Positions 614-53,601 of a DNA stretch of 64,000 nt are shown here, piece by piece (within the stretch, counting starts at the first letter, position 1; the number at the start of each line of letters is the position of its first letter). The translations under genes were made by a program, and so were the position numbers. The notes beneath the pieces are model-generated. The model had not been told where the DNA came from and searched no databases. It saw nothing but the letters and a program-made list of their open reading frames with translations. The DNA comes from Actinomycetes bacterium (GTDB lineage Bacteria; Actinomycetota; Thermoleophilia; BMS3ABIN01). Where the stretch lies: positions 13,422 through 77,421 of the forward strand of contig JAJYXB010000017.1 of NCBI GenBank assembly GCA_021791195.1, in the 5' to 3' direction.

Positions 614-647
614 TGCGGGCCAGCTGCCAAAGAAGAGGCGGCTTCTT

Positions 648-1613: not shown

Positions 1614-1661
1614 GCCGCCGCAGTGCAGGCTCAATCAAAAGAGAAGAGAGGAGATTTCCCC

Positions 1662-2111: not shown

Positions 2112-2129
2112 ATCACTAAAAGGATCGTC

Positions 2130-3467
2130 ATGGCCCGCGAGCTGAAGCCGACCGCAGCCATCCCTCCGCAAAACCTCGAGGCGGAAGAATCCGTGCTGGG
2201 GGCGATGATGATGTCCCCCGGGGCGATCATCTCTGCCCTCGACCAGTTGCATCGCACTGACTTTTACCGCGATTCGCACCGGGAGATCTATGGCAGCATC
2301 GTCGATCTGTTCAACCAGGGCGAGCCGGTGGACCAGATTACGGTCACCGAACACCTGGCGCACCGCGGGGTTCTGGAGCGGGTTGGCGGGAAGGCATACA
2401 TCCATACGCTGGTGTCGACCGTACCGGTAACGGCCAACGCCGCCCATTATGCCCGCATCGTCCGCGAGAACGCCATCCTCCGGTCGCTGATCGATGTCGG
2501 CAACCGCATCACTGCGCTCGGCTATGATCGTCCGGGCGAGGTGCGGGAACTGCTGGACCGCTGCGAGAGCATGGTGTTCGAGATCTCGCAGGAGCAGATC
2601 AAGGGCGAGTTCCGTCACATGAAGGAACTGCTCTCCGACCAGTTCGAGCGGATCGAGAAGCTGCACGAGGCGGGCAAGGCGATCACCGGTGTTCCCACCG
2701 GTTTTCATGACCTCGACAAAAAGACCTCCGGCTTCCAGCAGTCCAACCTGATCATCCTGGCGGCGCGGCCCTCGATGGGCAAGACGGCGCTGGCGCTGAA
2801 CCTGGCGCAGAACATCGCCGTCAAGCAGGGCATCCCCGTGGCCCTGTTCAGTCTGGAGATGAGCGAGATGGAGCTGGCGCAGCGAATGATGTGCACCCAG
2901 GGCCGGATCGACAGCGAGCGCCTGCGCAACGGCGCGGTCAGCGCCGACGACTGGACGAAGCTGACCGAGGCCTGCACCCTTTTGCAAAAAGCGCCTATTT
3001 ATGTTGACGATACGCCGAACATGAACATGCTCGAGATCCGCGCCAAGACGCGGCGGCTGAAGAGCAAGCATCCCGACCTGGGCCTGGTGATCGTCGACTA
3101 CCTGCAGCTGATGATGTCTGACGAGCGGGTCGAGAGCCGGCAGCAGGAAATCTCGAAGATTTCCCGTTCGATGAAGATCCTGGCGCGCGAGCTCGAGTTG
3201 CCGCTGCTGGCGATCTCGCAGCTTTCGCGGGCGGTGGAATCGCGGACGCCGCCGCGGCCGGTCCTTTCCGATTTAAGGGAGTCAGGAGCGATCGAGCAGG
3301 ACGCCGACGTCGTGATGTTCATCTACCGGCCGCGTGACGAGTCCGGCAAGCTGGAAAACACTGCCGAGCTGATCATCGCCAAGCACCGCAACGGTCCCAC
3401 GGGCACGGTCGACCTGGTATTCACGGAAAAATATACCTCGTTTGCCAGCGCCGCCCGGCGCGCCTAG
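2130..3467 (+). CDS. dnaB: replicative DNA helicase DnaB
   Basis: PPQNLEAEESVLGAMM N-terminal motif. Walker A ARPSMGKTALALN, Walker B IVDYLQLM, RecA-like C-terminal domain. 445 aa. Confidence 0.9.
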   Translation: MARELKPTAAIPPQNLEAEESVLGAMMMSPGAIISALDQLHRTDFYRDSHREIYGSIVDLFNQGEPVDQITVTEHLAHRGVLERVGGKAYIHTLVSTVPVTANAAHYARIVRENAILRSLIDVGNRITALGYDRPGEVRELLDRCESMVFEISQEQIKGEFRHMKELLSDQFERIEKLHEAGKAITGVPTGFHDLDKKTSGFQQSNLIILAARPSMGKTALALNLAQNIAVKQGIPVALFSLEMSEMELAQRMMCTQGRIDSERLRNGAVSADDWTKLTEACTLLQKAPIYVDDTPNMNMLEIRAKTRRLKSKHPDLGLVIVDYLQLMMSDERVESRQQEISKISRSMKILARELELPLLAISQLSRAVESRTPPRPVLSDLRESGAIEQDADVVMFIYRPRDESGKLENTAELIIAKHRNGPTGTVDLVFTEKYTSFASAARRA

Positions 3468-10350: not shown

Positions 10351-11304
10351 ATGGTGATGAAACCGGCAGAGCTGAAAAACAAACGCATCGGTGTCCTGAT
10401 GGGAGGACTCTCCCGCGAGCGGGAGGTCTCCTTGCGCTCGGGGTCCGGCTGCCTGGAAGCGCTGACCGCGCTGGGTTACGACGCGGTCGGTATCGATGTG
10501 GACCGCGAGGCGGCCCCCACGCTGGGCCGCGAAGGCGTGGAGGTGGCCTTCCTGGCCCTGCACGGGAAATTTGGGGAAGACGGCGCGATCCAGGGATTGC
10601 TCGAGCTGCTCGGCATCCCCTACACCGGTTCTAGGGTTCTGGCCAGCGCCACGGGCATGAACAAGGTGCGTACGAAGCAGGTCGCGGCCTGGTACGGCAT
10701 CGCCACGCCCGCGTTTGCCATCTTCGACGGCGTCCACGAGCTGGAGGCCGCGACTCGCGACGCAGCCGCGCGGCTGCGTTTTCCCGTGATGGTGAAACCG
10801 TGCGAGGAAGGCTCGAGCCTGGGAGTAGCAAAGGTGGAGAGCCCCGATCGGCTGGCGGAGGTGGTGCACGCCACGCATGGCGATTTCGGGCCCTCGCTGG
10901 CGGAAGAGTTCGTCGAGGGCGACGAGGTGACCGTGGGTCTGCTGGAATCGGAGGACGAACTAACGGCGCTGCCGGTGCTGCAGCTTGTACCGGGCGCCGA
11001 CTTCTATGACTTTCACTCCAAATACAGTGAGGGCGGCACCCGCTTCATCGTGCCGGCGGAGCTGCCTGAGCCGGTCTGCGCCCGGACCCGGGAGCTGGCC
11101 GCGCAGGTGCACCGGGCGCTGGGCTGCCGCGGGTTCAGCAGGGTGGATTTCATCATCGGCGCGGATGGCGCACCGCAGCTGACCGAGATCAACACCATTC
11201 CCGGAATGACCGCCACCTCGGACCTGCCGGCGCAGGCAGCCGCTGCCGGCATCGGTTATGAAGAGCTGGTGGAGAGGATGCTGACGACCGCGATGCTGCC
11301 CTGA
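10351..11304 (+). CDS. ddl: D-alanine--D-alanine ligase
   Basis: RIGVLMGGLSREREVSLRSG N-terminus, ATP-grasp motifs, C-terminal EINTIPGMT. Start taken at the MVMKPAELK ATG. Confidence 0.85.
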   Translation: MVMKPAELKNKRIGVLMGGLSREREVSLRSGSGCLEALTALGYDAVGIDVDREAAPTLGREGVEVAFLALHGKFGEDGAIQGLLELLGIPYTGSRVLASATGMNKVRTKQVAAWYGIATPAFAIFDGVHELEAATRDAAARLRFPVMVKPCEEGSSLGVAKVESPDRLAEVVHATHGDFGPSLAEEFVEGDEVTVGLLESEDELTALPVLQLVPGADFYDFHSKYSEGGTRFIVPAELPEPVCARTRELAAQVHRALGCRGFSRVDFIIGADGAPQLTEINTIPGMTATSDLPAQAAAAGIGYEELVERMLTTAMLP

Positions 11305-11730: not shown

Positions 11731-12468
11731 ATGGGTAGATTGAGGTTCGGCGGCCAGGCGGCTTCGCGGGCAGGAATCAGCTTTCTTGCCGGCCACGGGT
11801 TTGATTTTGCCGACCTGAACCTGAATGAGATGGACAAGATCCGCTCCGAGGAGCAGGAGATTCTCACGGGGGCGCACAAGGCGGGGATGTTCTTCGTCGC
11901 CCATGGCCCCGACCTGCGGGTTGATGATCCGGCAGGGCTTGCCAGGATTGAGGAATCGGTCAGGTACGCGGAGGCGTTCGCGCCGCGCACGATCACCATC
12001 CACCCCATCCTGTCGCCGATCTCGAAGGACAATACACCCGAAAGGATCAAACTCAAACTGCGCGAGATCGGCAGGCTGCAGGAGCTGGCTTCCGCTTACG
12101 GCGCCAGCATCGCCTGCGAGAACACCGCGGAGGAAGCCGTAGACATGCGGCAGCTGCTGGACGCTGTGCCGGGGGCCGTGCTGACGGTGGACATCGGGCA
12201 CAGCGAGCTTCTCAGCGAGCGGAACAAGTCGCTGGATTTCATCGAGGCATTCCCCGACCGCATTGGTCATATCCATATCCACGACAACGTGGGCGGCAAC
12301 ACATATTACGAGGATCTGCACCTGCCGCTGGGCGAGGGCAGGATCGACTTCGCCCCGATCATGCGGGCCCTGAGCGCCCTGCCCCAGGAAGTGACAGTCA
12401 CATTCGAGATGCCCCGGCAGAAAGCCTACGAAGGTCTCAACTGGCTGCGGGAGCGCAGCCTGGCCTGA
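11731..12468 (+). CDS. sugar phosphate isomerase/epimerase (xylose isomerase-like TIM barrel)
   Basis: ACEN..., HIHIHDN and GEGRIDF motifs typical of the AP-endonuclease-2 / xylose-isomerase-like TIM barrel family. 245 aa. Confidence 0.6.
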   Translation: MGRLRFGGQAASRAGISFLAGHGFDFADLNLNEMDKIRSEEQEILTGAHKAGMFFVAHGPDLRVDDPAGLARIEESVRYAEAFAPRTITIHPILSPISKDNTPERIKLKLREIGRLQELASAYGASIACENTAEEAVDMRQLLDAVPGAVLTVDIGHSELLSERNKSLDFIEAFPDRIGHIHIHDNVGGNTYYEDLHLPLGEGRIDFAPIMRALSALPQEVTVTFEMPRQKAYEGLNWLRERSLA

Positions 12469-12528
12469 CCCGGTTCCCTGGAGCTGCACGCCCCGGTCCG
12501 CAGGAACCCGAAAAGAAGGAAGACATTT

Positions 12529-13155
12529 ATGGGGACGACCAGCGTATACCGCGCCAAGAACAACATCTATCTGAATCTGACCAATCGCTGCTCTTCCGAT
12601 TGCAGCTTCTGCCTGGCCCGTTTTGCCGGCACCGTCTATGGCAGCGATCTCAGGCTTGAAAGCGAACCCGAAGTCGCAGACGTGCTGCGCGACCTGGAGT
12701 ACGAATTCCTGGAGGGTCCCGCCGACGAGGTGGTTTTCTGCGGCCTGGGTGAGCCGACGTTGCGGCTGGATGCGGTTTTGCAGATCACGGAATGGCTTCA
12801 CCTGAGGCGGATTCGCTCGCGACTTAACACCAACGGACAGGGCGCGCTCATCAATCCGGAGGTCGATGTCGCCGCCAAACTGGCGCGCGCCGGCCTGGAT
12901 GCAGTGTCGATCAGCCTTGTGGCCCATAATTCGGAAGTCTACAATCAGATATGCCGGCCGATTTTCAGCAAAGCGTTTCGCGCGGTGATCGGATTTGCCG
13001 AAGATTGCATCCGCGCGGGGATTGAAGTGACGCTGAGCGTAGTCGATCTTCCAGAGGTCGACATCGAGGCTTGCCGCAGCATCGCCGCCAGAATGGGTGC
13101 GGCATTCCGCGTGCGGCCGCTGATCACGGCCGGTTCCCAGGAGGTTAGCGCTTGA
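12529..13155 (+). CDS. minimal (~208 aa) radical SAM protein
   Basis: NLTNRCSSDCSFC = CX3CX2C [4Fe-4S]/SAM motif near the N-terminus. GLGEPTL glycine-rich SAM-binding motif. Confidence 0.6.
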   Translation: MGTTSVYRAKNNIYLNLTNRCSSDCSFCLARFAGTVYGSDLRLESEPEVADVLRDLEYEFLEGPADEVVFCGLGEPTLRLDAVLQITEWLHLRRIRSRLNTNGQGALINPEVDVAAKLARAGLDAVSISLVAHNSEVYNQICRPIFSKAFRAVIGFAEDCIRAGIEVTLSVVDLPEVDIEACRSIAARMGAAFRVRPLITAGSQEVSA

Positions 13156-30569: not shown

Positions 30570-30935
30570 GTGGACAAGAAGCACCGTCTCACCAGGTCGG
30601 CGGATTTCCAGCGGGTCTACCGCCAGGGGAAATCCGTGGCCGGCCGGCACATGGTCCTATATTACTTTGAAAGGCCCACGGAGAGTCCGGCTGATCCCCG
30701 GCTGGGGCTCACGGTATCGAAGAAGATCGGCGTGGCCGTGGTGCGCAACCGTGTCAAGCGGGTGCTGAAAGAGGCCTTCCATCAGTTTCAGGAAGATGTC
30801 GCGCCGGGCTACGATTATGTAATTATTGCCCGTTCCGGGCTGGCGGAGTATGTAGAAAAAAGCCAGTTTGAAGCCATCGTGACCGCGATGGCGGACCTGT
30901 TCCGGCGGGCTGACCTAATCCAGGAAGCAGAATAA
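30570..30935 (+). CDS. rnpA: ribonuclease P protein component
   Basis: ...HRLTRSADFQRVYRQGK...NRVKRVLKEAF... RnpA signature. GTG start. Follows rpmH. Confidence 0.9.
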   Translation: MDKKHRLTRSADFQRVYRQGKSVAGRHMVLYYFERPTESPADPRLGLTVSKKIGVAVVRNRVKRVLKEAFHQFQEDVAPGYDYVIIARSGLAEYVEKSQFEAIVTAMADLFRRADLIQEAE

Positions 30936-30936
30936 C

Positions 30937-31158
30937 TTGAAGCGAATACCAATCTTGCTGATCGGCTTTTATCAGAAGCTGATTTCACCGCTGTTTCCCC
31001 AACGTTGCAAATATCATCCCTCCTGCTCGAACTATGCAATCGATGCTTTCAGGGAATGGGGTTTTTTCCGCGGCCTGGCGCTGTCAGTGTGGCGCGTCTT
31101 GCGCTGCAATCCCTTCTCGCTGGGCGGCTTTGACCCGGTCAGGAAGAGGCAGCCGTGA
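30937..31158 (+). CDS. yidD: membrane protein insertion efficiency factor YidD
   Basis: CKYHPSCSNYAIDA...RCNPFSLGGFDPV. Confidence 0.85.
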   Translation: MKRIPILLIGFYQKLISPLFPQRCKYHPSCSNYAIDAFREWGFFRGLALSVWRVLRCNPFSLGGFDPVRKRQP

Positions 31159-31883
31159 CCGACGCTCTTGCTTTCCTGATCAATCCGCTTCGGCAGATAC
31201 TTTTCTTCCTGCATAACAACCTCGGCCTGTCGTATGCGCTGGGGATCATCGTCATGACCATCGCGCTGAGGCTCATCCTCACGCCCCTGACCATCAAGCA
31301 ATATACGGCGATGCGGGCGATGCAGAAGATCCAGCCGCTGATGAAAGAGCTGCAGGCGAAGTTCAAGGACGACCGGCAAAAGCTGAACGAAGAGACGATG
31401 AAGCTTTACCGGGAGCACAAGGTAAATCCTTTCGGCTCCTGCCTGCCGATGCTGATCCAGCTGCCGATCACCATGGCGCTCTATTACATGATCCGCAGCC
31501 AGCCTTTCACCACCGACAACTCATTCCTCTGGATCAGCAACATCAACGACCCTGACAGGATCCTGCTGGTCTTCTATGTGCTCAGCCAGCTGGGCTCCAG
31601 CCTGATGCTCACCACCACCACCGACAAGTCCCAGCGCATGCTGATGCTGATCATGCCAGTGGCCATCGGTTTCCTGGTGATTGGATTCCCGGCCGGGGCG
31701 CTGCTGTTCTGGGTGACGTCCAATCTGCTGATGCTGGGCCAGCAGCTGATCGTGCGGGAAGTAATCAAGGGCAGGGAGGCTCGTGAAGAGCTGGCGATTG
31801 AGCCGGCTCCTGAGCCACCTCAGCCAAAGACCGGAGGCAAGCCGCATGCAGGAAAACCAAAATCAAAAAAGAAACGCCGCTGA
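31155..31883 (+). CDS. yidC: membrane protein insertase YidC (short Gram-positive type)
   Basis: 242 aa, 5 TM helices, ...LTPLTIKQY...MQKIQPLMKELQAKFKDD... YidC/Oxa1 core. Lys-rich tail. Confidence 0.85.
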   Translation: MTDALAFLINPLRQILFFLHNNLGLSYALGIIVMTIALRLILTPLTIKQYTAMRAMQKIQPLMKELQAKFKDDRQKLNEETMKLYREHKVNPFGSCLPMLIQLPITMALYYMIRSQPFTTDNSFLWISNINDPDRILLVFYVLSQLGSSLMLTTTTDKSQRMLMLIMPVAIGFLVIGFPAGALLFWVTSNLLMLGQQLIVREVIKGREAREELAIEPAPEPPQPKTGGKPHAGKPKSKKKRR

Positions 31884-44158: not shown

Positions 44159-45600
44159 CTAATTGCCAGCCTCGCCATGATTGCGGGCCGGTTTGAGCGG
44201 ATTTACCGACTTGAGCGGCTCAAGATAATTGCGGCCGTCCGCGAATTCCCGGGCTGATTTGAGGATGCGCCGCAGGTGGCTGAAGGTCAGCCGGCGGGTG
44301 GCCAGTCCCTTGATCAGCGGCACGGCCCGCTGCACCAGGACGCCGGAATTTACATATGCCGTGCGGTAGAGGCTGGCGAATTCCTTGTAGAACTCGGCCG
44401 GATCCAGCTTGGTTGGCACTACCGAGTGGAGAAAGTCGTACAGCTCGTAATTCCTGGTGACGATCTTGCCTTCGATCTCCCTGAAGAGGTCGGTGCCCGG
44501 CAGCGGCGTCAGCACGGTGAACTGGGGGACGTTGACGCCGTGGCTGGTAACGTAGTTGCGCAGCCGCTCGAACTCCTGGTGGCCGTAATCCGGGTTGATG
44601 ATGAAGGCGCCCGTGACCGATACGTCCTGTCCCCGGATGATCTTCAGCGCTGCGTCATTGGTGGCGACGCTGTTCTTCTTGTTCACCGCCTTGAGCTCTT
44701 CCTCGTCCAGGCTTTCAAAACCGATGAAAACGTGCGAAAGGCCGACCTTGTGCCATTTGGCGATGATCTCGGGATGCTTGACGATGGTATCGCTGCGCGC
44801 CTGAAAAGAATAGTGCTTCTTGATGCCGCGCGCCATGAGCAGATCGGCGATCGCATCCGCGCGCTTGACGCTCATCAGGAAATTGTCATCGGTGATCAGG
44901 ACAAACTTCTCTTTCAGCCGCGCCAGCTCCTCGACCACCCGTTCGGGGCTCTTGGTGCGGCAGCGTCCCTCGAAGAAGGCCCAGACGCTGCAGAAATTGC
45001 AGCGGTGCGGGCAGCCGCGGGCGGTCTCGATGGTCGCCAGCGGCTTCCAGAAATTGAAGAAGTAGCGCCGCCGCCGTCTCTTCGGCACGAGGTCCCGGGC
45101 AGGAAACGGCAAATCATCCATGTTGTCAACAGGCTTGCGCGCTCCGGTGGAGATCTGGCCATCCGCGGTGTTGAGCATCAGTCCCGGGACGCTGTTGAGG
45201 TCGCCGCCGTCCCGCAAAGTGTTGATCAGTTCAGGGGCGCCGAATTCGCCTTCGCCGATGACGATGGCGTCGATCGCCTCACCGCTGAAGTCAGAAGGAT
45301 TGAGTGAGGCATGCAGCCCGCCGATGAACACGAACGGGGCGCCATTGTCCTTGGCGACCTGCGCGATTTTCTGCGTGCGGAAGACATCGATGGTGAATGA
45401 GCAGCTGATGCCGACAGCATCGGGGCGGAAATCAGCCAGCGCCGGTTCCAGGTCGCCGTCGACACGCATGTCATGGATGCGCACCTCATGGTCCGGGACG
45501 AGCGCGCCAGCGACCATCTCCAGTCCGAGCGGCTCGACCAGGGCTACCTTGGTAAAGCCGGGCTTGCCAAACTGCGGTGGTTGTACCAGAAGAACTTTCA
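44159..45600 (-). CDS. B12-binding-domain radical SAM protein
   Basis: N-terminal Rossmann-like cobalamin-binding domain (MKVLLVQPP...AVGISCSF...FIGGLHAS). Radical SAM motif ARGCPHRCNFCSVW. ~480 aa. Confidence 0.75.
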
Positions 45601-45694
45601 TAGGTAAAAATTTCCCGATTTCAATGAAAAGCATCCTATTAGATTGGGTCAAAAAGTGCAATGCGGCGCTACCTGGCCGCATGGGCTCCGAACG

Positions 45695-46744
45695 TCATGC
45701 TTTCCGGGATATTTGGAACTCGGCCGCGGTTCCTTCCTCATGCTGGATGAAGAACCTGATCGCCAGCAGCAACAACAGATCGAAAATGAAGCCGGGCAGG
45801 GCGTCGAACCCCTCGCTAATGAACAGGAAGAACTGGCTGATGAAGATGGAGATCAGCATCGAGCGCTCGAACATCCTGAAAGCGGCCAGGCGCGAGCGCC
45901 GGATCAGTATCAGCCCCCAGAAAACAAAGATGCTGGCGATGAGATTGGAACCCAGGATGGCCCATTCAGCGAACGAAAGTACGTCTATCTTCGCCGCGAT
46001 CGAGCCACCTCCGAACATCAGCGCCAGCATCGTCGCCGCGGCGCTTGCCGCCTGGATGACGAAAAAAGCGACGATCACGTTGTTGAACCAGCGCCGGCTT
46101 GCCAGTGTCCGGTAACGGCGGTGCCAGTAGCCTTTCCAGCGCTCGTACGCAGCCGCCGGCCTGGCTTCGGGCACGGCGCCGGCCCGGTCGATTATCTCGA
46201 GCAGGCTGGCTGTGAGCCAGTCCTGGCTTGCCTGATCCAGGGCGGCAAGCACGCGTTCGCGCGTATCTTCCCGGAAGCTGCCCGCCGGGATGTCCCGCAT
46301 CTCGTTGATGGCGTTACTCAGGACCTCGATGCGCGTGAAATTCCAGGCGGTGAGGATGTAGCGTGCCGCCAGGAAGATGGCCACGAAGGTGACGTACATG
46401 ATCGCCACCGCCGGCTGAAAGAAGTAATTGTTATCCCGGGTAACAAACTTCCCCACTTCGTCGATGAAGAGGCCGAAGCCGGCGCCGCCCGCAAGCGCCG
46501 CCAGCTCCTCGGCGCCCCGGTTAAGGAAGAGGATCAGGACCAGGATCGCCGCCGCCATCAGCAGCCCGCCCCAGAGCACGTGGGCGACGTGGATGGACGA
46601 GCCGCCGCCGAGCCTGGGGAAGCCGGTCAGCTCCAGAAACAGCCGCACCCCCAGGATGGTGACGATGGCGGAGATGAAAAAATATTCGGTGCCCCGCATG
46701 GCGCGGGAATCGCGGATCGGGTGTATTTGCAAATTTGCCGCCAT
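45695..46744 (-). CDS. hypothetical polytopic membrane protein
   Basis: 349 aa from internal ATG (MAANLQIHP). ~8 TM helices with a central soluble loop. No family recognised. Confidence 0.45.
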   Translation of the reverse strand: MAANLQIHPIRDSRAMRGTEYFFISAIVTILGVRLFLELTGFPRLGGGSSIHVAHVLWGGLLMAAAILVLILFLNRGAEELAALAGGAGFGLFIDEVGKFVTRDNNYFFQPAVAIMYVTFVAIFLAARYILTAWNFTRIEVLSNAINEMRDIPAGSFREDTRERVLAALDQASQDWLTASLLEIIDRAGAVPEARPAAAYERWKGYWHRRYRTLASRRWFNNVIVAFFVIQAASAAATMLALMFGGGSIAAKIDVLSFAEWAILGSNLIASIFVFWGLILIRRSRLAAFRMFERSMLISIFISQFFLFISEGFDALPGFIFDLLLLLAIRFFIQHEEGTAAEFQISRKA

Positions 46745-46865
46745 CACGAAGAGCCTCCCTTCCAAATTTGTCGGTCCGGGCGACGGACGGCCGGGAACGC
46801 GGCGGACTTGCACAGGGCCCTGTTACCTTTGCCAGGCGGAATCGAAACGCGAGGATGCCCGAGGG

Positions 46866-47282
46866 CTACCGGCTGCCGGTAGCGGCGGTGGTCGCGGCGG
46901 GCGCAGTCTGCGCCGGCGGAGCCGCCTGCCTGACCCAGATTCCGCCGGAAGGATCGGTGATCTTGCCGTCACCTATCTTGCCGGTGACCGGCGGCTTCTG
47001 GAACTCGGCGTAAGCGGTCAGCGTCAGTGTGCCGCCGGAGACAGCGAATTTGCCGGTCGTATCAAGGCCGGGCTCTTTGAGATGATAGGTGCCGTCGGCC
47101 TTGAGCTCGATGAAGCTGCCGCCGCTCCTGGAACTGCTGTAGTAGCCGGCGTAGTCGGCCGGATTGGCCTGGTTGGTGCCGCCCGAGCCGCAGCCGGCCG
47201 CAGCCGCCAGCAGGCCGGCGATGAGGCCGAAACCAGCCAGAGGCAGGATTATCCTATGCAGATTTCTCAGGTCGGGCATCAT
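46866..47282 (-). CDS. putative lipoprotein
   Basis: Signal peptide ending in lipobox LAAAAGC. Gly/Thr-rich mature region. Confidence 0.45.
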   Translation of the reverse strand: MMPDLRNLHRIILPLAGFGLIAGLLAAAAGCGSGGTNQANPADYAGYYSSSRSGGSFIELKADGTYHLKEPGLDTTGKFAVSGGTLTLTAYAEFQKPPVTGKIGDGKITDPSGGIWVRQAAPPAQTAPAATTAATGSR

Positions 47283-47317
47283 TTTGCACCATTTCTTAAG
47301 CACCGGCGACGGGGGGA

Positions 47318-47394
47318 TGGCGCCCCGAGAAGGATTCGAACCTTCGACCTACCGCTTAGGAGGCGGTCGCTCTCATCCTCTGAGCTATCGGGGC
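47318..47394 (-). tRNA. tRNA-Arg (anticodon CCT)
   Basis: Reverse complement folds as GCCCCGA-TAGCTCAGAGGAT...ACCGC-CTCCTAA-GCGGT...GGTTCGAATCC...TCGGGGC-G-CCA with encoded CCA. Anticodon loop CT-CCT-AA. Confidence 0.85.
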
Positions 47395-47461
47395 GGACGA
47401 TCCAGGCGCCGCACAGCGACATTCTAGAGGTTTTTGCCACCAAATCCGAAACGCGCCTGCC

Positions 47462-48397
47462 TCAGCTCTCAAGCGCGCAGAGCAGGATCTCTTCCACCAT
47501 GTCATTGAAACTCAGGCCCGCAGCCTGAGCCGCCATCGGCATCAGGCTGGTCTCGGTGAAACCGGGGATGGTGTTGATCTCCAGACACCAGAGCCCGCCC
47601 GCATCGTCGAGGATCAGATCGACGCGGCCGAAGCCGGAGCAGTTCAGCGCGTTGAATGCCTTCAGCGAGATCTCGACGGCGCGTGCGGCGACGTCCTCCG
47701 GGATCTCCGCCGGCACGACGTAATCGGCTTTCCCCATCGTGTAACGCGATTCGAAGTCGAAGAACTCTGTCTTGGGGATCGCCTCGACGATCGGCAGCGC
47801 CCGCGGTTCCCGGCCGATGATGCTGACCGCCAGCTCCCGTCCCTTGACGTATTTCTCCAGCAGCACCTTGTCGTCGAAACTGAAGGCGGAGATCAGCGCC
47901 GCCGGCATCTCCTCGACGCTGTGGGCGAAGCGCACGCCCAGCGCGGAGCCCTGGCCGGCGGGCTTGACGACGATCGGCAGGTCGAGCTCCCCGGTGATGA
48001 TCGGCAGGGTGTCCACGGCGCCCAGCTCCTGGAAGGCGTCACGGCTGAAGGCGTAGAAATCCGGCGTCGGAATGCCGTCCGCCACAAAGATGTGTTTTGA
48101 CAGCACTTTGTCCATGCACCGCAGCGAAGGCAGAACGTTCGAGCCGGTGTAGGGGATGCCAAGGATCTCCAGCAGCTCCTGCACCGTGCCGTCCTCGCCG
48201 CTCTTGCCGTGCATGGCGATGAACGCCGCGTCCGGTTTCATCTCTTTCAGCCGCCTGACCATGCGTACATCGACGTCGATGCTCTCGACCGTGTGGCCGA
48301 GCTCTTCCAGAGCCTTCTCCACCCGCGCTCCCGACTTCAGCGAGATGTTGCGCTCGAGCGAACGCCCTCCTTTGAGAACCGCCACTTTCTTGCTCAT
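47462..48397 (-). CDS. D-alanine--D-alanine ligase family ATP-grasp enzyme (second Ddl paralog)
   Basis: MSKKVAVLKGGRSLERNISLKSG...HGKSGEDGTVQELLEILGIPYTGS...EINTIPGFT. 311 aa. Confidence 0.8.
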   Translation of the reverse strand: MSKKVAVLKGGRSLERNISLKSGARVEKALEELGHTVESIDVDVRMVRRLKEMKPDAAFIAMHGKSGEDGTVQELLEILGIPYTGSNVLPSLRCMDKVLSKHIFVADGIPTPDFYAFSRDAFQELGAVDTLPIITGELDLPIVVKPAGQGSALGVRFAHSVEEMPAALISAFSFDDKVLLEKYVKGRELAVSIIGREPRALPIVEAIPKTEFFDFESRYTMGKADYVVPAEIPEDVAARAVEISLKAFNALNCSGFGRVDLILDDAGGLWCLEINTIPGFTETSLMPMAAQAAGLSFNDMVEEILLCALES

Positions 48398-48469
48398 TTT
48401 GTTCCCCCATCGGTTAATTGATGAGTTGCCTGTTCGTGACAGGAACTGCCGTGCCGCCGCGCCAACGTC

Positions 48470-49717
48470 TCAGCTGCCCCGCAAGGCCTGGTACAGATCC
48501 ATCTGCTCGCGGATCACCTTGGCCAGCCGCTTGATGCCTTCTGCGATCATGGCCTCGGGGACGCCACAGAACGCCAGCCGCATATGGTTGGCGCCGCTGC
48601 CGTCCTCCCAGCCGCCGGCGCCGGGAACGAAGGCGACTTTTTCCTGTTCCAGCGCCAGCGCCAGCAGATCGGTGGCGTCAAGATATTCCGGCAGCGTCGC
48701 CCAGATGTAGAAGCCGCCGCGGGGCCGCGTCCAGGTCGCCTCTGGCGGAAAATGCTCTTCGAGCGCCGCCTGCATGGCGTCGCGCCGGCGCCTGTATACT
48801 TCGATCACCGTCTCGACGTAGTCGCGCCAGTGAGCCTCGCGGAAATATTCGTTGACGATCATCTGCGCCAGCGTGGACGGACACAGGTCCGCCGCCTGCT
48901 TCCCCAGGTTGAACTTGGCCAGCAGCGGTGCCGGCGCGGCGATCCATCCCAAACGGATGCCCGGCGAGAGGATCTTGGAAAAAGTGCCCACGTAGATGAC
49001 GTTGTTGTCGCTGTCGAGCGAGTAGAGCGTCGGCTGCGGCTCGCCCTCGAAGCGCAGCAGGCCGTAGGGGTTGTCCTCGACGATGATCAGCTGATGCTCC
49101 CGCGCCAGCTCCACCAGCTCGTGCCGCCGCGCCAGACTCAGCGAGACGCCGGCCGGATTGTGGAAATTCGGGATGACGTAGATGAACTTCGGCTTGCGCC
49201 CCCGCTTTAGCTCTGCCTCGATCACCTGGCGCAGCAGGTCTATGCGGATGCCGTCGTCGTCCAGCGGCACCTGGGTCACCTCGGCCTGGAAGCTGGAGAA
49301 TGACGGGATGGCGCCGGGGTAGGTGGGCGCTTCGGCGATGATCAGGTCGCCGGGATCGATGAGCACCCGCGTCACCAGATCGATCGCCTGCTGCCCGCCG
49401 GTGGTGACGATGAGGTTCTCGATATCGACATGGGCGCCCTCCGCGGCCATCACTTCGGCGATATTGCGCCTGGTCTGGTCGAAGCCTTCCGTGGGGCCGT
49501 ATTGCAACGCCGCCGCCGAGGACTTCATCGCCACCTCGTGCGTCACCTTTGCCAGGGTTTTTGCGGGGAAGCTCTCGGTGCTGGGCAGGCCGCCGGCCAG
49601 ACTGATGACATCGGGGCGCGCTATCACCGCCATCAGGTCGCGCATCACCGATGAGCGCATGTTGCCGGTGCGCTTCGCATAAAAAACTTCATACTTGTCA
49701 AGATCGATTTTCGTCAT
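48470..49717 (-). CDS. PLP-dependent aminotransferase, class I/II (LysN/AadAT-like)
   Basis: Fold type I aminotransferase motifs (...YVGTFSKILSPGIRLGW...). Start taken at internal ATG MTKIDL. Confidence 0.7.
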   Translation of the reverse strand: MTKIDLDKYEVFYAKRTGNMRSSVMRDLMAVIARPDVISLAGGLPSTESFPAKTLAKVTHEVAMKSSAAALQYGPTEGFDQTRRNIAEVMAAEGAHVDIENLIVTTGGQQAIDLVTRVLIDPGDLIIAEAPTYPGAIPSFSSFQAEVTQVPLDDDGIRIDLLRQVIEAELKRGRKPKFIYVIPNFHNPAGVSLSLARRHELVELAREHQLIIVEDNPYGLLRFEGEPQPTLYSLDSDNNVIYVGTFSKILSPGIRLGWIAAPAPLLAKFNLGKQAADLCPSTLAQMIVNEYFREAHWRDYVETVIEVYRRRRDAMQAALEEHFPPEATWTRPRGGFYIWATLPEYLDATDLLALALEQEKVAFVPGAGGWEDGSGANHMRLAFCGVPEAMIAEGIKRLAKVIREQMDLYQALRGS

Positions 49718-49816
49718 AAACCCAGATTCTAGTCTGGCCCGTTTCTTTAAGCAATAACGCGGGAATGGTACAATGCGGGCTTGTCCGGAATGAGTCAAGC
49801 TAATCAGGAGGTTCTG

Positions 49817-50386
49817 ATGCCGGTTGCGTGGGCGATCGGGGCGGGGGCAGGGCTGGCCTCCATGGCCGGGGTGCGTTCTTTTATCCCTTTGGCGATCTAC
49901 ATGCTGTTTGCCAGGCTCGGATGGGTCTGGGGTTTTTCGCCGGAGAATACGCCGATGGATTTCCTGCTGTCCAACGCCGCCGCCGCCGTGCTGCTGGTAG
50001 CGGTCGCGGTGCAGATCGCCATCACGCGGCTGCCGGCGATGGCCAGGATCGACCTGCTCCTGCGCATGCCGCTGGCCGTGCTGGTGGGAGCGCTGATTAT
50101 GGCCGGCACGCTCGCAGGCGCGATCTCTTCCAGTCTGTACCTGGTGGGCCTGCCCGTGGGCGCGGTGCTGGCGCTTCTTGGTGTCTACGTGTATCAGGGC
50201 CTGGTCATGGCCGGAGGCGGCCGGGACCCGGGGCCGGCGCTGGACGTCTCCCTGATCATCGTTTCAGCCCTGACGATGCTGGTGCCGCCAGCCGGCTACC
50301 TGGCCCTGCTTCTGGGGATCTGGCTGGCGCTGAGGGTGCGCCGGCTGAAGCGGATGAAGTACAAGGGTCTGCGGGTGCTGGCCTGA
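49817..50386 (+). CDS. small polytopic membrane protein (DUF4126-like)
   Basis: ~190-aa, 4-5 TM helices. Weak family recognition. Confidence 0.35.
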   Translation: MPVAWAIGAGAGLASMAGVRSFIPLAIYMLFARLGWVWGFSPENTPMDFLLSNAAAAVLLVAVAVQIAITRLPAMARIDLLLRMPLAVLVGALIMAGTLAGAISSSLYLVGLPVGAVLALLGVYVYQGLVMAGGGRDPGPALDVSLIIVSALTMLVPPAGYLALLLGIWLALRVRRLKRMKYKGLRVLA

Positions 50387-50465: not shown

Positions 50466-50750
50466 ATGCCGATCAAGCGCGCACATCTTTACATCTCCGG
50501 CCGGGTCCAGGGAGTGTTCTTCCGCGCCTGGACAGCCGAGAGCGCCCAGCGCCTGGGCCTGGGAGGGTGGGTGCGCAACCTCGTGGACGGGCGTGTGGAG
50601 GCGGTCTACGAAGGCGATCCGGCCAAAGTCGACCGCATGATCGAGCTGAGCCGTGAAGGGCCGCCCCGCGCGCGCGTCGATGCCGTTCTGGATGACTACA
50701 GCGAGCCGCCGCAGGGGCTCGTGGCGTTCGAGGTCCGGCGCACCGCCTAA
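50466..50750 (+). CDS. acyP: acylphosphatase
   Basis: ISGRVQGVFFRAWT...GLGGWVRNLVDGRVE signature. 94 aa. Confidence 0.85.
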   Translation: MPIKRAHLYISGRVQGVFFRAWTAESAQRLGLGGWVRNLVDGRVEAVYEGDPAKVDRMIELSREGPPRARVDAVLDDYSEPPQGLVAFEVRRTA

Positions 50751-50824
50751 AAACCCGGGACACCTTATAAAATTCGGCAGCGAAATAATTTGCAGGGTGT
50801 CCCGGGTTTTTCAAGCACCCCGCA

Positions 50825-51658
50825 TCATCCGCGGTGCCGGTGGTCATGTTTTTCCACGTGGCTGTGCGGATGCGAGTGCTCGAGGCCGTCATGGCGGTGG
50901 GTGTGATAGTGCACCAGGTTGGCGCTGAGCAGCAGCTCCCGATCGGCCAGCACCTCCGCGGCCGGTCCCTCGCCGGCGAGCCGGTGATCTTCTCCCAGGA
51001 CTATCGCCCTGCTGGCGATGTGGGTGACGATGCCCAGGTCCTGGGTGGCGGTGATTATGGTCTTGCCGGCGCGGTTGAGCTCTGCCATCATCTGGATCAG
51101 GAATTCCTCCGTCTTGGGATCGAGACCCGCGGTGGGCTCGTCGAACAGCAGCACATCCGGGTTGATAGCCAGCACCGCGGCCAGCGCCACCTTCTTTTTC
51201 TCGCCGCCACTCAGGTGATATGGCGGCCGGTCGCGCAGATGTTCGAGACCCAGGATATGCAGCGTGTCCTTGACGCGTTCTTCGACCTCATCCTGGGGCA
51301 AACCCAGATGCAGCGGTCCGAAAGCAATCTCCTCCCAGACGTTGGGCGAGAACAGCTGTGCATCGGAGTTCTGGAACACGAAGCCGACACGGCGGCGGAA
51401 ACCCCGGGCGAAACCCTCGTCCTGAAGCGCGGTTTCGTCCAGCCTGCTGCCGAAGGCCCTGATCTGACCCCCGCTGGGGAAGATGAGTCCATCCAGCAGC
51501 TTGAGCAGCGTCGATTTGCCGGAGCCGTTCGCGCCCAGCAGGGCTAACTTCTCCCCGGCGTCCACCCTGAAGCCGATGCCGTCCAGGCCCGTGGCGTCCA
51601 TATAACTGTAACGGACAGCCTCGAGCTCGAATACCGGATGTGGGCCGCGCTCAGCCAA
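50825..51658 (-). CDS. cbiO: ECF-type ABC transporter ATP-binding protein (CbiO/NikO-like)
   Basis: Walker A GANGSGKST, LSGGEKKKVALA signature, Walker B LLFDEP. Probable TTG start overlapping the cbiQ stop. Confidence 0.8.
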   Translation of the reverse strand: MAERGPHPVFELEAVRYSYMDATGLDGIGFRVDAGEKLALLGANGSGKSTLLKLLDGLIFPSGGQIRAFGSRLDETALQDEGFARGFRRRVGFVFQNSDAQLFSPNVWEEIAFGPLHLGLPQDEVEERVKDTLHILGLEHLRDRPPYHLSGGEKKKVALAAVLAINPDVLLFDEPTAGLDPKTEEFLIQMMAELNRAGKTIITATQDLGIVTHIASRAIVLGEDHRLAGEGPAAEVLADRELLLSANLVHYHTHRHDGLEHSHPHSHVEKHDHRHRG

Positions 51659-52601
51659 GCAGGCGGTCGCCTCCCACAGCCGCAATCGCCAGCAGCAACG
51701 CCGCAACCAGCAGCAGCAGGTCTTGAGTGCGCATGCGAAAGGGCCTCATGGTCATCGGCTCGCCGTTGAAGCCGCGGCTGACCATGGCCGCGTAGATCTC
51801 GTCGCTGAGCGTGCTGGACTTGCCCAGCAGCGTCCCCATGCTGCTGGCGGCGAAGTGCCGGTCGTCACGGGGGCTGCCGGGGCCGACCATGCGGCTGCGT
51901 CTGGCTGTGAACATGTCGCTTGCCAGGCTGAGGAGCAGGAAGATATACCGGTACGCCATCGACAGGATCAGCACAAAGACACGCGGCACGTAAAAGATCC
52001 GCAGCGCCTTGAGCAGGTCGGACCAGCGCGTCGTCAGCGTCAGCAGTACCGCCAGCGACACCGACACCGCCACTCGGAGGATGAGGATGGCGGCGCCAGC
52101 GAGCCCCTGCCTGGTGATCGCCAGCGAGGTGCCAAGCGACCACGGGCCCAGACGCACCTCGTGGCCGAAACTCCAGATAGTGAACAGCGGGTCACCTGCT
52201 TTGACTACATTAAATATACTGGGTAAAACAATCACGCCGGCGAAGACGGGGATGAACAGCCAGACGCGCTTGATGAAAAATCTAAGCGACACCCGCGAAG
52301 AAGCGGCTGCCGCCAGAGTGAGCGCATAGAGGGTCAGCAGCAGGAGGGGTGTCCGGATGATCGCCGCCGCCATCAGCAGCGCCAGCAGCCCGGCGCTCTT
52401 GGCCCGCGGATCGGTGCGCTGCAGCAATCCCTGCCGCGCCGCAATCTGCTCGGAGAAGACGCTGGTCCTGAGCGCGTGCGCCATCCCCTGGATCGTCCGT
52501 TCCACCGCGCTGCGCCGGCGCCTGCGGCCGCTGGTGGCTGGAGCTTTCGCGCCGGCAGCGGCGATCATCCACCGTGGCAGTGTCGGCTCAGTTTCAATCA
52601 C
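51651..52601 (-). CDS. cbiQ: ECF transporter transmembrane T component (CbiQ/NikQ-like)
   Basis: Polytopic membrane protein between M and O components. Start possibly at internal ATG. Confidence 0.6.
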   Translation of the reverse strand: MIETEPTLPRWMIAAAGAKAPATSGRRRRRSAVERTIQGMAHALRTSVFSEQIAARQGLLQRTDPRAKSAGLLALLMAAAIIRTPLLLLTLYALTLAAAASSRVSLRFFIKRVWLFIPVFAGVIVLPSIFNVVKAGDPLFTIWSFGHEVRLGPWSLGTSLAITRQGLAGAAILILRVAVSVSLAVLLTLTTRWSDLLKALRIFYVPRVFVLILSMAYRYIFLLLSLASDMFTARRSRMVGPGSPRDDRHFAASSMGTLLGKSSTLSDEIYAAMVSRGFNGEPMTMRPFRMRTQDLLLLVAALLLAIAAVGGDRLLG

Positions 52602-53601
52602 TTTTTTTTGTCCTGTGTATCAACTTGACCGCGAGAAAAGTCAGGCCGCCGACTATGGCCAGGCCGATCGCGGCGGAGGCCATATACCCGGGCACCGAGG
52701 ACCAGAAGCTGCCCCGCACGCCGTAATGCGGCAGTATTCCACTCCAGAAGCCCGAAAACCTGTTCATCCCTTCGGGGATGAAGCCGAAACGCCGGCGGAT
52801 ATCCTCGGGGCTCCACTCGCCCCAGGCCGTCGCCGTGGCCAGCAGACCCAGCGGCACGAAGATGAGCATCAGCAGCAACCCGATCAGCAGCGGCCGCAGC
52901 CGTGGGCCGGCTGCTGGCGCGGCGGCTTTCTCACCCGCCAGCAGGCCGATGCGCGCCCGCTGCAGGTAAACGACGGCCAGGGCGGTCACCCCCGCTTCCA
53001 CGAAGCCGATCACCGTCAGGTGCACCAGCATCATCGCCGGGATCGTCTGCGAAAGGCCGTAAGGCGAGTACAGCGCCGTACCGTTGGCGGTGTGGAAGAG
53101 GCCGGGCTGGATGCCAACCTCGAGCGCGACCAGGAAAGCGGAAACGTTGAGGCCGACATATGCGCCGATGCCGGCGCCGATCCAGCGGCGCGCTCCCCGG
53201 GGGGAGGAGCCGGCTGAAATCAGTCGGTATACATAATAGCCGACGATTGGCAGGATGAATGCCATGTTGAAGCAGTTGGCGCCGATGGCGAGGATGCCGC
53301 CGTCACCAAAGAAGAGCGCCTGGATCACCAGCGCCACCGTCAGCGCGATCACCGCCGCCCACGGTCCCAGCGTTACCGCCACCAGCGTGCCGCCCACCGC
53401 GTGCGCTGAGGTTCCACCAGGCACGGGGATGTTGAACATCATGATGACGAACGTGAACGCCGCCCCGATAGCCACCAGCGGCGCCTGCCGCTGCCTGAGC
53501 GTCCGCTTGACCTTGTGGCCGGCGGTGTACCAGACGGGCACCATCATCGCCCACAGGCCGCCCGCGGTCTGCGGGCTGATGTAGCCATCGGGTATGTGCA
53601 T
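52594..53601 (-). CDS. cbiM: fused CbiM/CbiN (NikMN-type) substrate-capture component of Ni/Co ECF transporter
   Basis: Starts MHIPDGY, the Met1-His2 metal-coordinating N-terminus diagnostic of CbiM/NikM. C-terminal extension with an extra TM (CbiN-like). 335 aa. Confidence 0.8.
   Translation of the reverse strand: MHIPDGYISPQTAGGLWAMMVPVWYTAGHKVKRTLRQRQAPLVAIGAAFTFVIMMFNIPVPGGTSAHAVGGTLVAVTLGPWAAVIALTVALVIQALFFGDGGILAIGANCFNMAFILPIVGYYVYRLISAGSSPRGARRWIGAGIGAYVGLNVSAFLVALEVGIQPGLFHTANGTALYSPYGLSQTIPAMMLVHLTVIGFVEAGVTALAVVYLQRARIGLLAGEKAAAPAAGPRLRPLLIGLLLMLIFVPLGLLATATAWGEWSPEDIRRRFGFIPEGMNRFSGFWSGILPHYGVRGSFWSSVPGYMASAAIGLAIVGGLTFLAVKLIHRTKKSD

Follow-up and report, generated by a model that had tools for sequence, protein, structure and literature searches.

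A class I aminotransferase gene (AT) and a neighbouring gene for a D-Ala-D-Ala ligase homologue that lacks the equivalent of E. coli Lys215 (Ddl2) probably form an ancient, co-transcribed two-gene module, in which D-Ala-D-Ala or a close variant of it is made and the aminotransferase feeds or balances alanine; we put the probability of this reading at about 55%. The pair was located in a 64,000-nucleotide stretch of DNA, here called the window, from a Thermoleophilia MAG (Actinomycetota). The relevant features of the window are as follows.

10351-11304, plus strand: Ddl1, Lys215-containing DdlB-type ligase, 317 aa, of the 'ESKYD' type (Leu282Asp); no AT is adjacent.
47318-47394, minus strand: tRNA-Arg(CCT) (ARAGORN; Rfam 71 bits).
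47462-48397, minus strand: Ddl2, homologue of DdlB-type D-Ala-D-Ala ligases in the Lys215-less subfamily, 311 aa, second gene of the pair.
48398-48469, minus strand: AT-Ddl2 spacer, 72 bp; a GGGGGAA ribosome-binding site lies 5 nt upstream of the Ddl2 ATG.
48470-49717, minus strand: AT, class I (fold-type-I) aminotransferase, 415 aa, first gene of the pair (Pfam PF00155, Aminotran_1_2, 2e-39).
49726-49754, minus strand: candidate promoter of the pair, found by eye (TTGCTT, 17 nt, TAGAAT); 8 nt separate it from the AT start codon.
49781-50386, plus strand: DUF4126 membrane protein gene, divergent from AT (Pfam PF13548).

In agreement with the initial annotation, two full-length genes of the D-Ala-D-Ala ligase family were present in the window, and the products of both scored above the NCBIfam cut-offs. 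Ddl2 gave 344.1 bits on NF002378 (cut-off 243) and 296.4 bits on TIGR01205 (cut-off 245.65); the corresponding scores for Ddl1, which is 41% identical to Ddl2, were 338.4 and 296.6 bits. The start of Ddl1 was the same in public gene calls, where P0121 was 100% identical at 317 aa. For AT the ATG at 49717 was taken as the start; a longer, TTG-started ORF extends to 49798, but identical contigs carry the 415-aa form in public gene calls. A mur/fts cluster surrounded neither ligase gene, and Ddl2 was situated approximately 16 kb from rnpA-yidD-yidC.

The proposed position of Ddl2, 72 bp 3' of a fold-type-I aminotransferase gene on the same strand, was confirmed, and no terminator-like site was found in the spacer. 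From the sequence, we infer that AT and Ddl2 are co-transcribed. The hexamers upstream of AT represent a possible promoter for the pair, with a -35 hexamer that matches the consensus at 3/6 positions and a score under the threshold of the consensus scan. Since this candidate ends so close to the AT start codon, the mRNA of the pair would be nearly leaderless. No riboswitch or other known RNA was detected 5' of AT by the Rfam scan, which gave the tRNA only.

The initial annotation had named a lack of conservation of the adjacency in related genomes as evidence against its proposal; in fact, AT and Ddl2 were adjacent in 80/80 Thermoleophilia species genomes; an AT match was obtained in 79 of these, and the 80th carried a partial AT at a contig end. 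The pair was also present in four of four distant lineages, with a stop/start overlap in three of them. Overlaps of 4 bp (ATGA/GTGA) were seen in 28 of the 80 Thermoleophilia loci, as judged by a start-codon heuristic, and in 16/53 diverse loci. A sample of 80 diverse metagenomic Ddl loci was then considered, for which the scan query was a 4-sequence alignment, a 14-sequence alignment being too diverse. Among the loci with enough upstream sequence to be informative, AT lay directly 5' of the ligase gene in 49/49 non-Lys215 cases compared to 0/23 Lys215 cases (Fisher p = 2.6e-19, for loci that are phylogenetically non-independent). The pair was unsplit in approximately 135 informative loci (80 Thermoleophilia, L094, 4 distant, 49 metagenomic and the window), from lineages spanning 37-74% G+C, and AT orthologues (39-79% identity) were found 5' of every non-Lys215 Ddl examined. 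The conserved adjacency and the frequent stop/start overlaps support the suggestion that AT and Ddl2 act as a functional unit. In L094 the AT gene carries a frameshift. A search for AT-Ddl fusions ('Rosetta stone' proteins) returned long Ddl-containing representatives that were MurC-Ddl and MurB-Ddl fusions, and a 789-aa ORF in L088 was a frameshift artefact. A subclade with His215/Pro282 was rejected as a member of the module; in L102 its upstream gene was another Ddl-like gene, with no AT.

The genes around the pair were far less constant. A tRNA-Arg gene had been noted beside Ddl2, and the tRNA-Arg(CCT) indeed begins 67 bp past the Ddl2 stop, with its own TAGAAT box in front. It was kept in L090 as well as in the clade of the window and was absent 3' of Ddl2 in 11 scanned Solirubrobacterales-type (70% G+C) loci; it is a neighbour only and lies outside the AT-Ddl2 module. 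In L094 and the close clade the DUF4126 gene occupied the same position, the Solirubrobacter equivalent fell narrowly under the cut-off (26.5 compared to 27.5 bits), and the gene was absent beside the pair in more distant lineages. In several lineages the module adjoined parB-parA-gidB-jag-yidC; families recurring near the pair matched the parB, parA, gidB and jag genes of L097 and L100 in size and position. No recurrent third gene (racemase, dipeptidase or Mur ligase) was found beside the pair. Since the flanking genes vary among lineages, the pair alone is what is retained.

These observations bear on the explanation that Ddl2 is a housekeeping ligase and that AT, a general aminotransferase for aromatic, aminoadipate or branched-chain substrates, has no metabolic link to it, the adjacency and Lys215Arg having arisen once and persisted by inheritance and shared expression needs. 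The association does have a single phylogenetic origin, the pair sits among housekeeping genes in several lineages, and the characterised relatives of AT bear general transaminase names (multiple-substrate aminotransferase, 2-aminoadipate transaminase, alanine-glyoxylate transaminase). However, the surrounding gene order has been fully reshuffled, yet the pair stayed together throughout, often translationally coupled. Functionally unrelated genes are seldom kept together to this extent, and we consider this explanation unlikely.

Diaz-Saez et al. 2019 (PMC6899670) reported that the Lys215 equivalent is a key residue in substrate binding and catalysis and that it is strictly conserved across 588 representative Ddl sequences. 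Ddl1 has Lys at this position; in Ddl2 it is occupied by Arg218, and Lys215Arg was found in 117/117 Ddl2 homologues. Across the non-Lys215 clade, omega-loop position 215 was usually Arg and rarely Met or Ala, and the 'serine-loop' residue Ser151 was usually Ala (Ala152 in Ddl2). The branch was separate on the Ddl tree, and position 215 alone split the two ligase groups cleanly. Two other substitutions were dropped as hallmarks of Ddl2: Glu148Gln, because Gln148 is frequent in ordinary Ddl proteins, and Ser151Ala, because Ala151, while enriched in the clade, also occurs in some Lys215 enzymes. No characterised member of the clade was found in the literature, and nothing relevant was found there on an AT-ddl operon, on Lys215 variants or on racemase-independent D-Ala synthesis. 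The non-Lys215 branch is widespread and apparently undescribed.

Apart from this position, Ddl2 resembled a standard ligase. The protein matched Dala_Dala_lig_N (PF01820) and Dala_Dala_lig_C (PF07478) with an E value of 5.5e-56, and its AlphaFold model (pLDDT 91.8) overlaid E. coli DdlB (1iow, 2dln) with a TM score of 0.94 and an rmsd of 1.7-1.8 A. Canonical active-site residues in both copies had been named in the initial annotation as evidence against its proposal; the active sites were canonical except for one residue in each, Lys215Arg in Ddl2 and Leu282Asp in Ddl1. Glu15, His63, Ser150, Tyr216, Arg255, Asp257, Glu270, Asn272, Gly276 and Ser281 were present in both proteins and did not vary in the clade of Ddl1, and these residues, together with Lys97 and Lys144, were invariant or nearly so in the 117 close Ddl2 homologues and 51 metagenomic clade members. 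The ATP-, Mg- and D-Ala-binding residues of Ddl2 were all as in E. coli DdlB except two (Lys215Arg and Ser151Ala), and no feature of its substrate pocket appears to demand an unusual substrate. Positions 216 (Tyr, Ser, Met, Thr or Val in the clade) and 282 (Leu, Thr, Met, Ala or Ser) were more varied than in Lys215 enzymes. These two positions shape the second D-Ala site.

The nearest solved relatives of AT were Thermococcus MsAT (1wst), the kynurenine aminotransferase II homologue PH0207 (3aov), TM1131 (1vp4) and the 2-aminoadipate aminotransferase LysN of Thermus (2egy), with E values ranging from 3e-106 for MsAT to 2e-79. The PLP lysine motif GTFSK was present, the MRLAF motif with the alpha-carboxylate-binding Arg aligned with the solved relatives, and the Ser20/Arg23 pair by which LysN recognises Glu and 2-oxoglutarate was found as SxxR (Ser23/Arg26). 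By sequence, AT is accordingly assigned to the class I aminotransferases, in the KAT-II / AadAT (LysN) / MsAT subgroup. A MocR-family regulator (PdxR, GabR) was rejected as an identity for AT, which has no HTH domain and is only 415 aa long; on the PdxR model the match began at profile position 91 and reached 266 bits (cut-off 320). No racemase-like second base was evident. Only seven residues conserved among the ligase-linked aminotransferases were absent from the four characterised relatives: Ala30, Val89, Glu93, Asn216, Pro262, Trp297 and Asp372.

The constant linkage of AT to the Lys215-less branch suggests joint work in cell-wall precursor supply. In the favoured reading, Ddl2 would ligate D-Ala-D-Ala, or a close D-Ala-D-X variant, in an ATP-dependent reaction for peptidoglycan, and Arg would stabilise phosphate in place of Lys215. 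The Glu-linked AT would be metabolically coupled to Ddl2, its most likely role being the conversion of pyruvate and Glu to Ala and 2-oxoglutarate, ahead of racemisation and ligation, and Ddl1 would be a second ligase with Lys215 intact, retained together with Ddl2 in this lineage. This reading sits awkwardly with the reported strict conservation and catalytic importance of Lys215 (PMC6899670), and the Met or Ala found at position 215 in some clade members fits poorly with a simple exchange of Lys for Arg. The greater variability of positions 216 and 282 and the retention of Ddl1, which hints at non-redundancy, also count against it, and L-alanine supply has no obvious need of strict co-inheritance with one ligase subtype.

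The same loss of a reportedly invariant catalytic lysine, variation at positions 216 and 282 and coexistence with a Lys215 ligase could instead reflect a new two-step pathway, in which AT makes the substrate of the ligase (D-alanine, by a stereo-inverting or racemising reaction, or else an unusual amino acid) and the ligase produces a non-canonical dipeptide or alanine-racemase-independent D-Ala-D-Ala. Strict co-inheritance, frequent stop/start overlaps and the wide G+C range of the organisms concerned are in its favour, and VanH-VanA, VanT-VanC and the 'pdx' operon (PMC8698665) provide precedents. On the other hand, the D-Ala1- and D-Ala2-binding residues of Ddl2 were unchanged, AT has the appearance of a normal class I enzyme, L-specific and Glu-linked, with no sign of a second base, and a dipeptidase, racemase or Mur ligase did not recur beside the pair. 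To our knowledge, the fold-type-I enzymes that make D-amino acids fall in other subgroups. A pathway of this kind is therefore regarded as a tentative alternative, and coupled alanine supply and ligation by the AT-Ddl2 module remains the preferred explanation.

Comparison of the two copies was carried out in the same MAGs, where identity for Ddl2 and Ddl1, respectively, was 85 and 69, 79 and 70, 79 and 69, 77 and 63, 80 and 67, and 80 and 64%; Ddl1 thus evolves faster than Ddl2. Both ligases were encoded on the same contig in one case (L021/L092). Ddl1 had a conserved context of its own, comprising Zn_peptidase_2, a divergent LPG_synthase_TM gene, Ddl1, a xylose-isomerase-like TIM barrel, a radical SAM protein, a two-component system and HtrA. 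A Ddl1-type group at 55% identity had a G+C content of approximately 62%, a composition which suggests a single lineage that is not Solirubrobacterales. When a profile built from distant clade members was used to search for homologues, Solirubrobacterales sequences dominated the matches. Among the matched contigs, co-occurrence of both ligase types was not found outside the window's own clade. That Ddl1 is kept beside Ddl2 hints that the two copies are not redundant.

Ddl is essential and is the target of D-cycloserine, and the usual view is that its active site does not vary. A large natural branch without Lys215, tied genetically to one aminotransferase and common among the Actinomycetota of soil, sediment and freshwater, therefore offers a clean natural experiment on the roles of Lys215 and the serine loop, and it predicts that a transaminase and a cell-wall ligase are functional partners. 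Present annotation ('D-alanine--D-alanine ligase' and 'PLP-dependent aminotransferase family protein') masks this conserved module. It is conceivable, though we doubt it, that AT and the Lys215-less ligase constitute an unrecognised peptidoglycan precursor route in which AT delivers the substrate directly, for example D-alanine by stereo-inversion or another D-Ala-D-X partner. If so, the terminus of the peptide stem in many Actinomycetota would be made differently from the textbook Alr-Ddl pathway, and our understanding of how a major bacterial phylum obtains its D-alanine would change; if AT does not supply the substrate, the result is still a well-defined subfamily and operon that deserve a curated model.

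The initial annotation had also raised the possibility of a D-Ala-D-Lac or D-Ala-D-Ser ligase of the vancomycin-resistance type, or of a dipeptide ligase of secondary metabolism. Ddl2 has a PLP enzyme as its neighbour and does not belong to a mur/fts cluster, as such an origin might lead one to expect, but neither proposal was borne out. On all Van-family NCBIfam models Ddl2 scored 133-210 bits against cut-offs of 495-775, the best value for the VanA/B/D/M-type (D-Ala-D-lactate) models being 169 (cut-off 550), with 210 on the VanG model (495) and 186 on the D_ala_D_ser model (520). Tyr216 was kept, and no vanH, vanX, vanY, vanT, vanRS, serine racemase, VanXY, dehydrogenase, dipeptidase or biosynthetic genes were found near Ddl2, whose neighbourhood consisted of housekeeping genes, with rnpA-yidD-yidC in the same window. 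Ddl2 matched no solved L-amino-acid ligase (BacD, RizA, TabS type) at E ≤ 0.001, and the match of Ddl1 to the L-amino-acid ligase structure 3vot reached only 2.6e-6. Together with the class-wide conservation of Ddl2 and its slow evolution, slower than that of Ddl1, these results make both origins very improbable.

Among known systems, the DdlB-type ligases (E. coli 2dln/1iow, Yersinia pestis 4zqi) are most like Ddl2, sharing its length class, its two Pfam domains, approximately 40% identity in a structure-based alignment and the predicted fold (TM 0.92-0.94). Unlike DdlB, whose gene in E. coli sits between murC and ftsQ, Ddl2 has Lys215Arg (some clade members have Met or Ala) and Ser151Ala, and AT is always located 5'. 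MsAT, PH0207, TM1131 and LysN share with AT the PLP lysine and the serine-arginine pair for acidic substrates; we know of no report that any of them adjoins a ddl gene. Bacilysin synthesis (bacD/bacF) also combines the two kinds of enzyme, an ATP-grasp ligase building a dipeptide from an amino acid that the aminotransferase provides, but BacD is an L-amino-acid ligase outside the Ddl family, and AT-Ddl2 has no biosynthetic cluster. In VanH-VanA and VanT-VanC, one operon encodes both a Ddl-type ligase and the enzyme providing its substrate, and the AT-Ddl2 pair may work like vanHAX and vanC-vanXY-vanT in this respect. Its partner enzyme, however, is a class I aminotransferase rather than a D-lactate dehydrogenase or serine racemase, it has neither a dipeptidase nor VanRS, and it is chromosomal, ancient and vertically inherited. 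The Micromonosporales 'pdx operon' (Andreo-Vidal et al. 2021; PMC8698665), which consists of a PALP Ser/Thr dehydratase, a Ddl-like ligase, a VanX-like dipeptidase and VanRS, likewise combines a PLP-dependent enzyme with a Ddl-like ligase in Actinomycetota. Its PLP enzyme is a fold type II dehydratase, whereas that of AT-Ddl2 is a type I aminotransferase; the 'pdx' operon includes the dipeptidase and two-component regulator that AT-Ddl2 lacks, and it has a different and narrower taxonomic range.

The two genes of the Ddl (D-Ala-D-Ala ligase) family, the adjacent aminotransferase (AT) gene and the tRNA-Arg gene described in the initial annotation were all confirmed, as follows:

48470-49717, minus strand: AT, 415 aa, the first of three consecutive minus-strand features
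47462-48397, minus strand: Ddl2, 311 aa, after a 72-bp spacer from AT
47318-47394, minus strand: tRNA-Arg(CCT), 67 bp beyond Ddl2
10351-11304, plus strand: Ddl1, 317 aa, 36 kb from AT-Ddl2

The window has a G+C content of 61.8%; contigs of the Actinomycetota MAGs GCA_027392855.1 and GCA_023379285.1 were identical to it across this region, and its nearest named relatives were "Thermoleophilia bacterium" MAGs. No terminator-like site was found in the AT/Ddl2 spacer, and the Ddl2 start was preceded by a ribosome-binding site (GGGGGAA). The AT start codon is preceded at 8 nt by a TAGAAT box and, 17 nt upstream of that box, by TTGCTT (49726-49754), an arrangement that suggests a leaderless mRNA. 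A second TAGAAT box (47420-47425) lies 25 nt ahead of the tRNA-Arg gene, which suggests that the tRNA has a promoter of its own. Downstream of the tRNA (44159-47303) were three genes, a trio kept in the close clade, encoding a 145-aa protein in which a Cys comes after a hydrophobic N-terminal stretch (perhaps a lipoprotein signal), a multi-pass membrane protein of 372 aa that matched no family, and a B12-binding radical SAM enzyme whose closest similarity was to HpnR, a hopanoid C-3 methylase (300 bits, under the cut-off of 650). The region upstream of a divergent DUF4126 gene (50466-53601) encodes an acylphosphatase and an ECF metal transporter of the CbiM-CbiQ-CbiO type; the distant L094 genome also retains acylphosphatase and DUF4126 genes upstream of AT.

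Ddl1 and Ddl2 are 41% identical, and each contains both Ddl Pfam domains. Both exceeded the curated cut-off (243 bits) of the NCBIfam D-alanine--D-alanine ligase model, with 338 bits for Ddl1 and 344 bits for Ddl2, and their best solved relatives were DdlB-type enzymes of Yersinia, E. coli and Pseudomonas. The D-Ala-D-lactate and D-Ala-D-serine models all scored far under their cut-offs for both proteins; the proposal that Ddl2 is a Van-like or secondary-metabolite ligase is very improbable. The AlphaFold model of Ddl2 had a mean pLDDT of 91.8, with low confidence only in the mobile omega loop, and overlaid on E. coli DdlB with a TM score of 0.94 and an rmsd of 1.7-1.8 A. The Ddl fold and substrate-binding residues of Ddl2 are intact; in E. 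coli DdlB numbering, both proteins retain Glu15, His63, Lys97, Lys144, Ser150, Tyr216, Arg255, Asp257, Glu270, Asn272, Gly276 and Ser281.

Three positions differed between Ddl2 and E. coli DdlB, namely Lys215 to Arg in the omega loop, Glu148 to Gln, and Ser151 to Ala in the serine loop. Among 150 family representatives (50% identity clusters), Gln148 was common, as was Ala or Thr at 151; only a minority had a residue other than Lys at 215. The Lys215-equivalent lysine is reported as strictly conserved in 588 representative Ddl sequences, and the Leu282 equivalent as 90% conserved in them (Diaz-Saez et al. 2019, PMC6899670). Lys215Arg was invariant among the homologues of Ddl2 itself (117/117). 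At the protein level, Ddl2 belongs to the Ddl family but lacks one feature that defines it, Lys215. Ddl1 differed by Leu282 to Asp, invariant in 120/120 of its own homologues; in E. coli this position shapes the second D-Ala site.

To survey the AT-Ddl2 adjacency, one genome per GTDB species was scanned, yielding 80 loci with a Ddl2 relative (56-87% identity) from the window's own clade, Solirubrobacterales and Thermoleophilaceae. In 79 of these, the immediate upstream neighbour, on the same strand, was an AT orthologue (53-79% identity); the remaining locus, L079, had just 691 bp of upstream sequence, which contained the AT 3' end. An additional complete-genome contig (L094) also had AT upstream, frameshifted. 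The AT-Ddl2 link is real: absence of the adjacency from relatives had been named as a refutation test in the initial annotation, and the pair proved to be conserved across these 80 Thermoleophilia species loci. A 4-bp overlap of the AT stop and Ddl start codons (ATGA or GTGA), a hallmark of translational coupling, was found in 28/80 loci by heuristic start-codon choice, all within the 56-62%-identity (Solirubrobacterales-type) group. Besides the pair, the only flanking gene common to the window's clade and Solirubrobacterales was the divergent DUF4126 gene.

The AT frame was broken in two assemblies (L088, 8672-11041; L094, 6739-7972), probably by assembly errors rather than as pseudogenes; a 789-aa "AT-Ddl fusion" ORF in L088 was rejected as a product of the frameshift. 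Nearly all Solirubrobacterales-type loci (L023-L089), as well as L100 (6950-7438), have a convergent BFN_dom (bifunctional nuclease) gene just downstream of the pair, in the former at about 0.05-3 kb from Ddl2. No BFN gene occurs in the window itself.

In a neighbour-joining tree, Ddl2 was placed in a separate branch with all representatives that have no Lys215, and Ddl1 among the Lys215 enzymes, in the "ESKYD" group. For four distant proteins of the non-lysine branch, which share 41-47% identity with Ddl2, genomic context was checked: P0331 (Arg at 215; "Actinomycetota bacterium" MAG, 57% G+C), P0523 (Ala; 67% G+C), P0264 (Met; 45% G+C) and P0498 (Arg; 60% G+C). An orthologous AT (39-55% identity) was immediately upstream in all four, overlapping the ligase gene in three, and parB-parA-gidB-jag-yidC adjoined the pair in two. 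Generic Ddl motifs were then used to scan metagenomes, and each of the 80 diverse Ddl loci obtained was scored for residue 215 and for an upstream AT whose end lay within -60 to +400 bp. AT was upstream of 49 non-Lys215 loci (44 Arg, 5 Met) and missing from none, with too little upstream sequence in two; the Lys215 loci comprised none with AT, 23 with no AT and six with too little upstream sequence. Because Fisher's exact test (p = 2.6e-19) ignores shared ancestry, this result shows a clean clade-level association and not independent events. AT was also absent from five further Lys215 loci used as controls, four of them Ddl1-type and the fifth that of the Lys215 representative closest to Ddl2. 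The AT-linked loci ranged from 37 to 74% G+C; in the diverse set of 53 (the four looked up plus 49 metagenomic loci), the 4-bp overlap occurred 16 times and the gap was <=30 bp in 34 cases. A third Ddl-like subclade, represented by P0252 (L102, 3-1339), has His at 215 and Gly-Pro at 281-282; considered as an AT-linked pair, it instead comprised tandem Ddl-like paralogs, the upstream gene overlapping the start of P0252.

AT is a fold-type-I enzyme whose nearest solved relative was the Thermococcus "multiple substrate aminotransferase" (MsAT; E = 3e-106), followed by Pyrococcus PH0207, Thermotoga TM1131, Thermus 2-aminoadipate aminotransferase LysN and Thermococcus alanine:glyoxylate aminotransferase. 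Its catalytic residues are intact: it has the PLP lysine (GTFSK), the alpha-carboxylate-binding arginine and the Ser/Arg pair used by LysN to recognise glutamate, 2-oxoglutarate and aminoadipate. A MocR regulator was rejected, since the DNA-binding domain is absent. On these grounds AT looks like an active, glutamate-linked transaminase, its second substrate not being readable from sequence. Seven AT residues (30, 89, 93, 216, 262, 297 and 372) were >=90% conserved in 113 ligase-linked ATs and absent from MsAT, LysN, TM1131 and PH0207; among them are Asn216 (adjoining the PLP-binding Asp215) and Trp297, and the set may be a signature of which substrate the subfamily prefers.

The two genes form a module with strict co-inheritance and frequent stop/start overlap. 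That they are housekeeping genes unrelated to each other, whose proximity is only historical, is unlikely and fits poorly with the survival of the pair in about 135 informative loci while its surroundings were completely reshuffled. The favoured reading, to which we give a probability of roughly 0.55, is that Ddl2 makes D-Ala-D-Ala or a close variant and that AT is metabolically coupled to it. The ligase would still join two D-alanines, or D-Ala and a close analogue, via the usual acyl-phosphate chemistry, with Arg218 substituting for Lys215 beside the altered serine loop (Ala152); coupling would most simply involve alanine formed by AT from pyruvate and glutamate. Several observations count against this reading and leave some probability to another, rather doubtful one, in which AT provides the actual substrate of the ligase, which might be D-alanine or a different partner. 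Residue 215 is Met or Ala in some clade members, positions 216 and 282 are more variable in the clade, a Lys215 ligase is also retained in this lineage, and L-alanine supply alone does not explain the strict coupling.

In MAGs carrying both ligases, identity to the window's proteins was consistently higher for Ddl2 than for Ddl1 (85 vs 69, 79 vs 70, 79 vs 69, 77 vs 63, 80 vs 67 and 80 vs 64%). Proteins were assigned to the same MAG when the length of the longest contig was identical; the L021/L092 pair is located on one contig. Ddl2 is therefore the more strongly constrained protein; it occurs throughout the class and is not an accessory "second" copy. The conserved context of Ddl1 comprised a Zn peptidase, a divergent LPG-synthase-like membrane protein, Ddl1, a xylose-isomerase-like TIM barrel, a radical SAM protein, a two-component system and HtrA. 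Its relatives at about 55% identity formed a single homogeneous lineage of ~62% G+C, compared with 70% for Solirubrobacterales; in that lineage a BFN_dom gene is divergently upstream of the Ddl1-type gene (L091, 5433-5921; L095, 8166-8651). Downstream of Ddl1 (11731-13155) were the TIM-barrel protein, weakly similar to CbiR (49 bits vs 105), together with a radical SAM protein of the TatD-associated kind (TIGR04038, 184 bits), a pair found again after Ddl1 in L096.

Genes usual near the replication origin were present at 30570-31883 and 33-3467: rnpA, yidD and yidC were confirmed by Pfam, and the ssb 3' end, rpsR, rplI and dnaB were recognised by motif and synteny. AT-Ddl2 is about 16 kb from rnpA-yidC. 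An origin-proximal site may be ancestral for the pair, since in L097 and L100 it directly adjoins parB-parA-gidB-jag-yidC.

Neither an AT-ddl operon nor a Ddl clade lacking Lys215 was found described in a literature search of incomplete coverage. AT-Ddl2 is a well-supported and apparently undescribed subfamily-plus-operon, belonging to an essential, drug-targeted pathway. The conserved link stood, and the Van-like or secondary-metabolite framing of the initial annotation was unsupported. As a system, AT-Ddl2 resembles van operons and the Micromonosporales "pdx operon" (PLP dehydratase, Ddl-like ligase, dipeptidase and VanRS; PMC8698665), in which a ligase is paired with a substrate-making enzyme. 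It differs from both in the class of its partner enzyme and in having neither dipeptidase nor regulator and, in contrast to them, the module is ancient and chromosomal.
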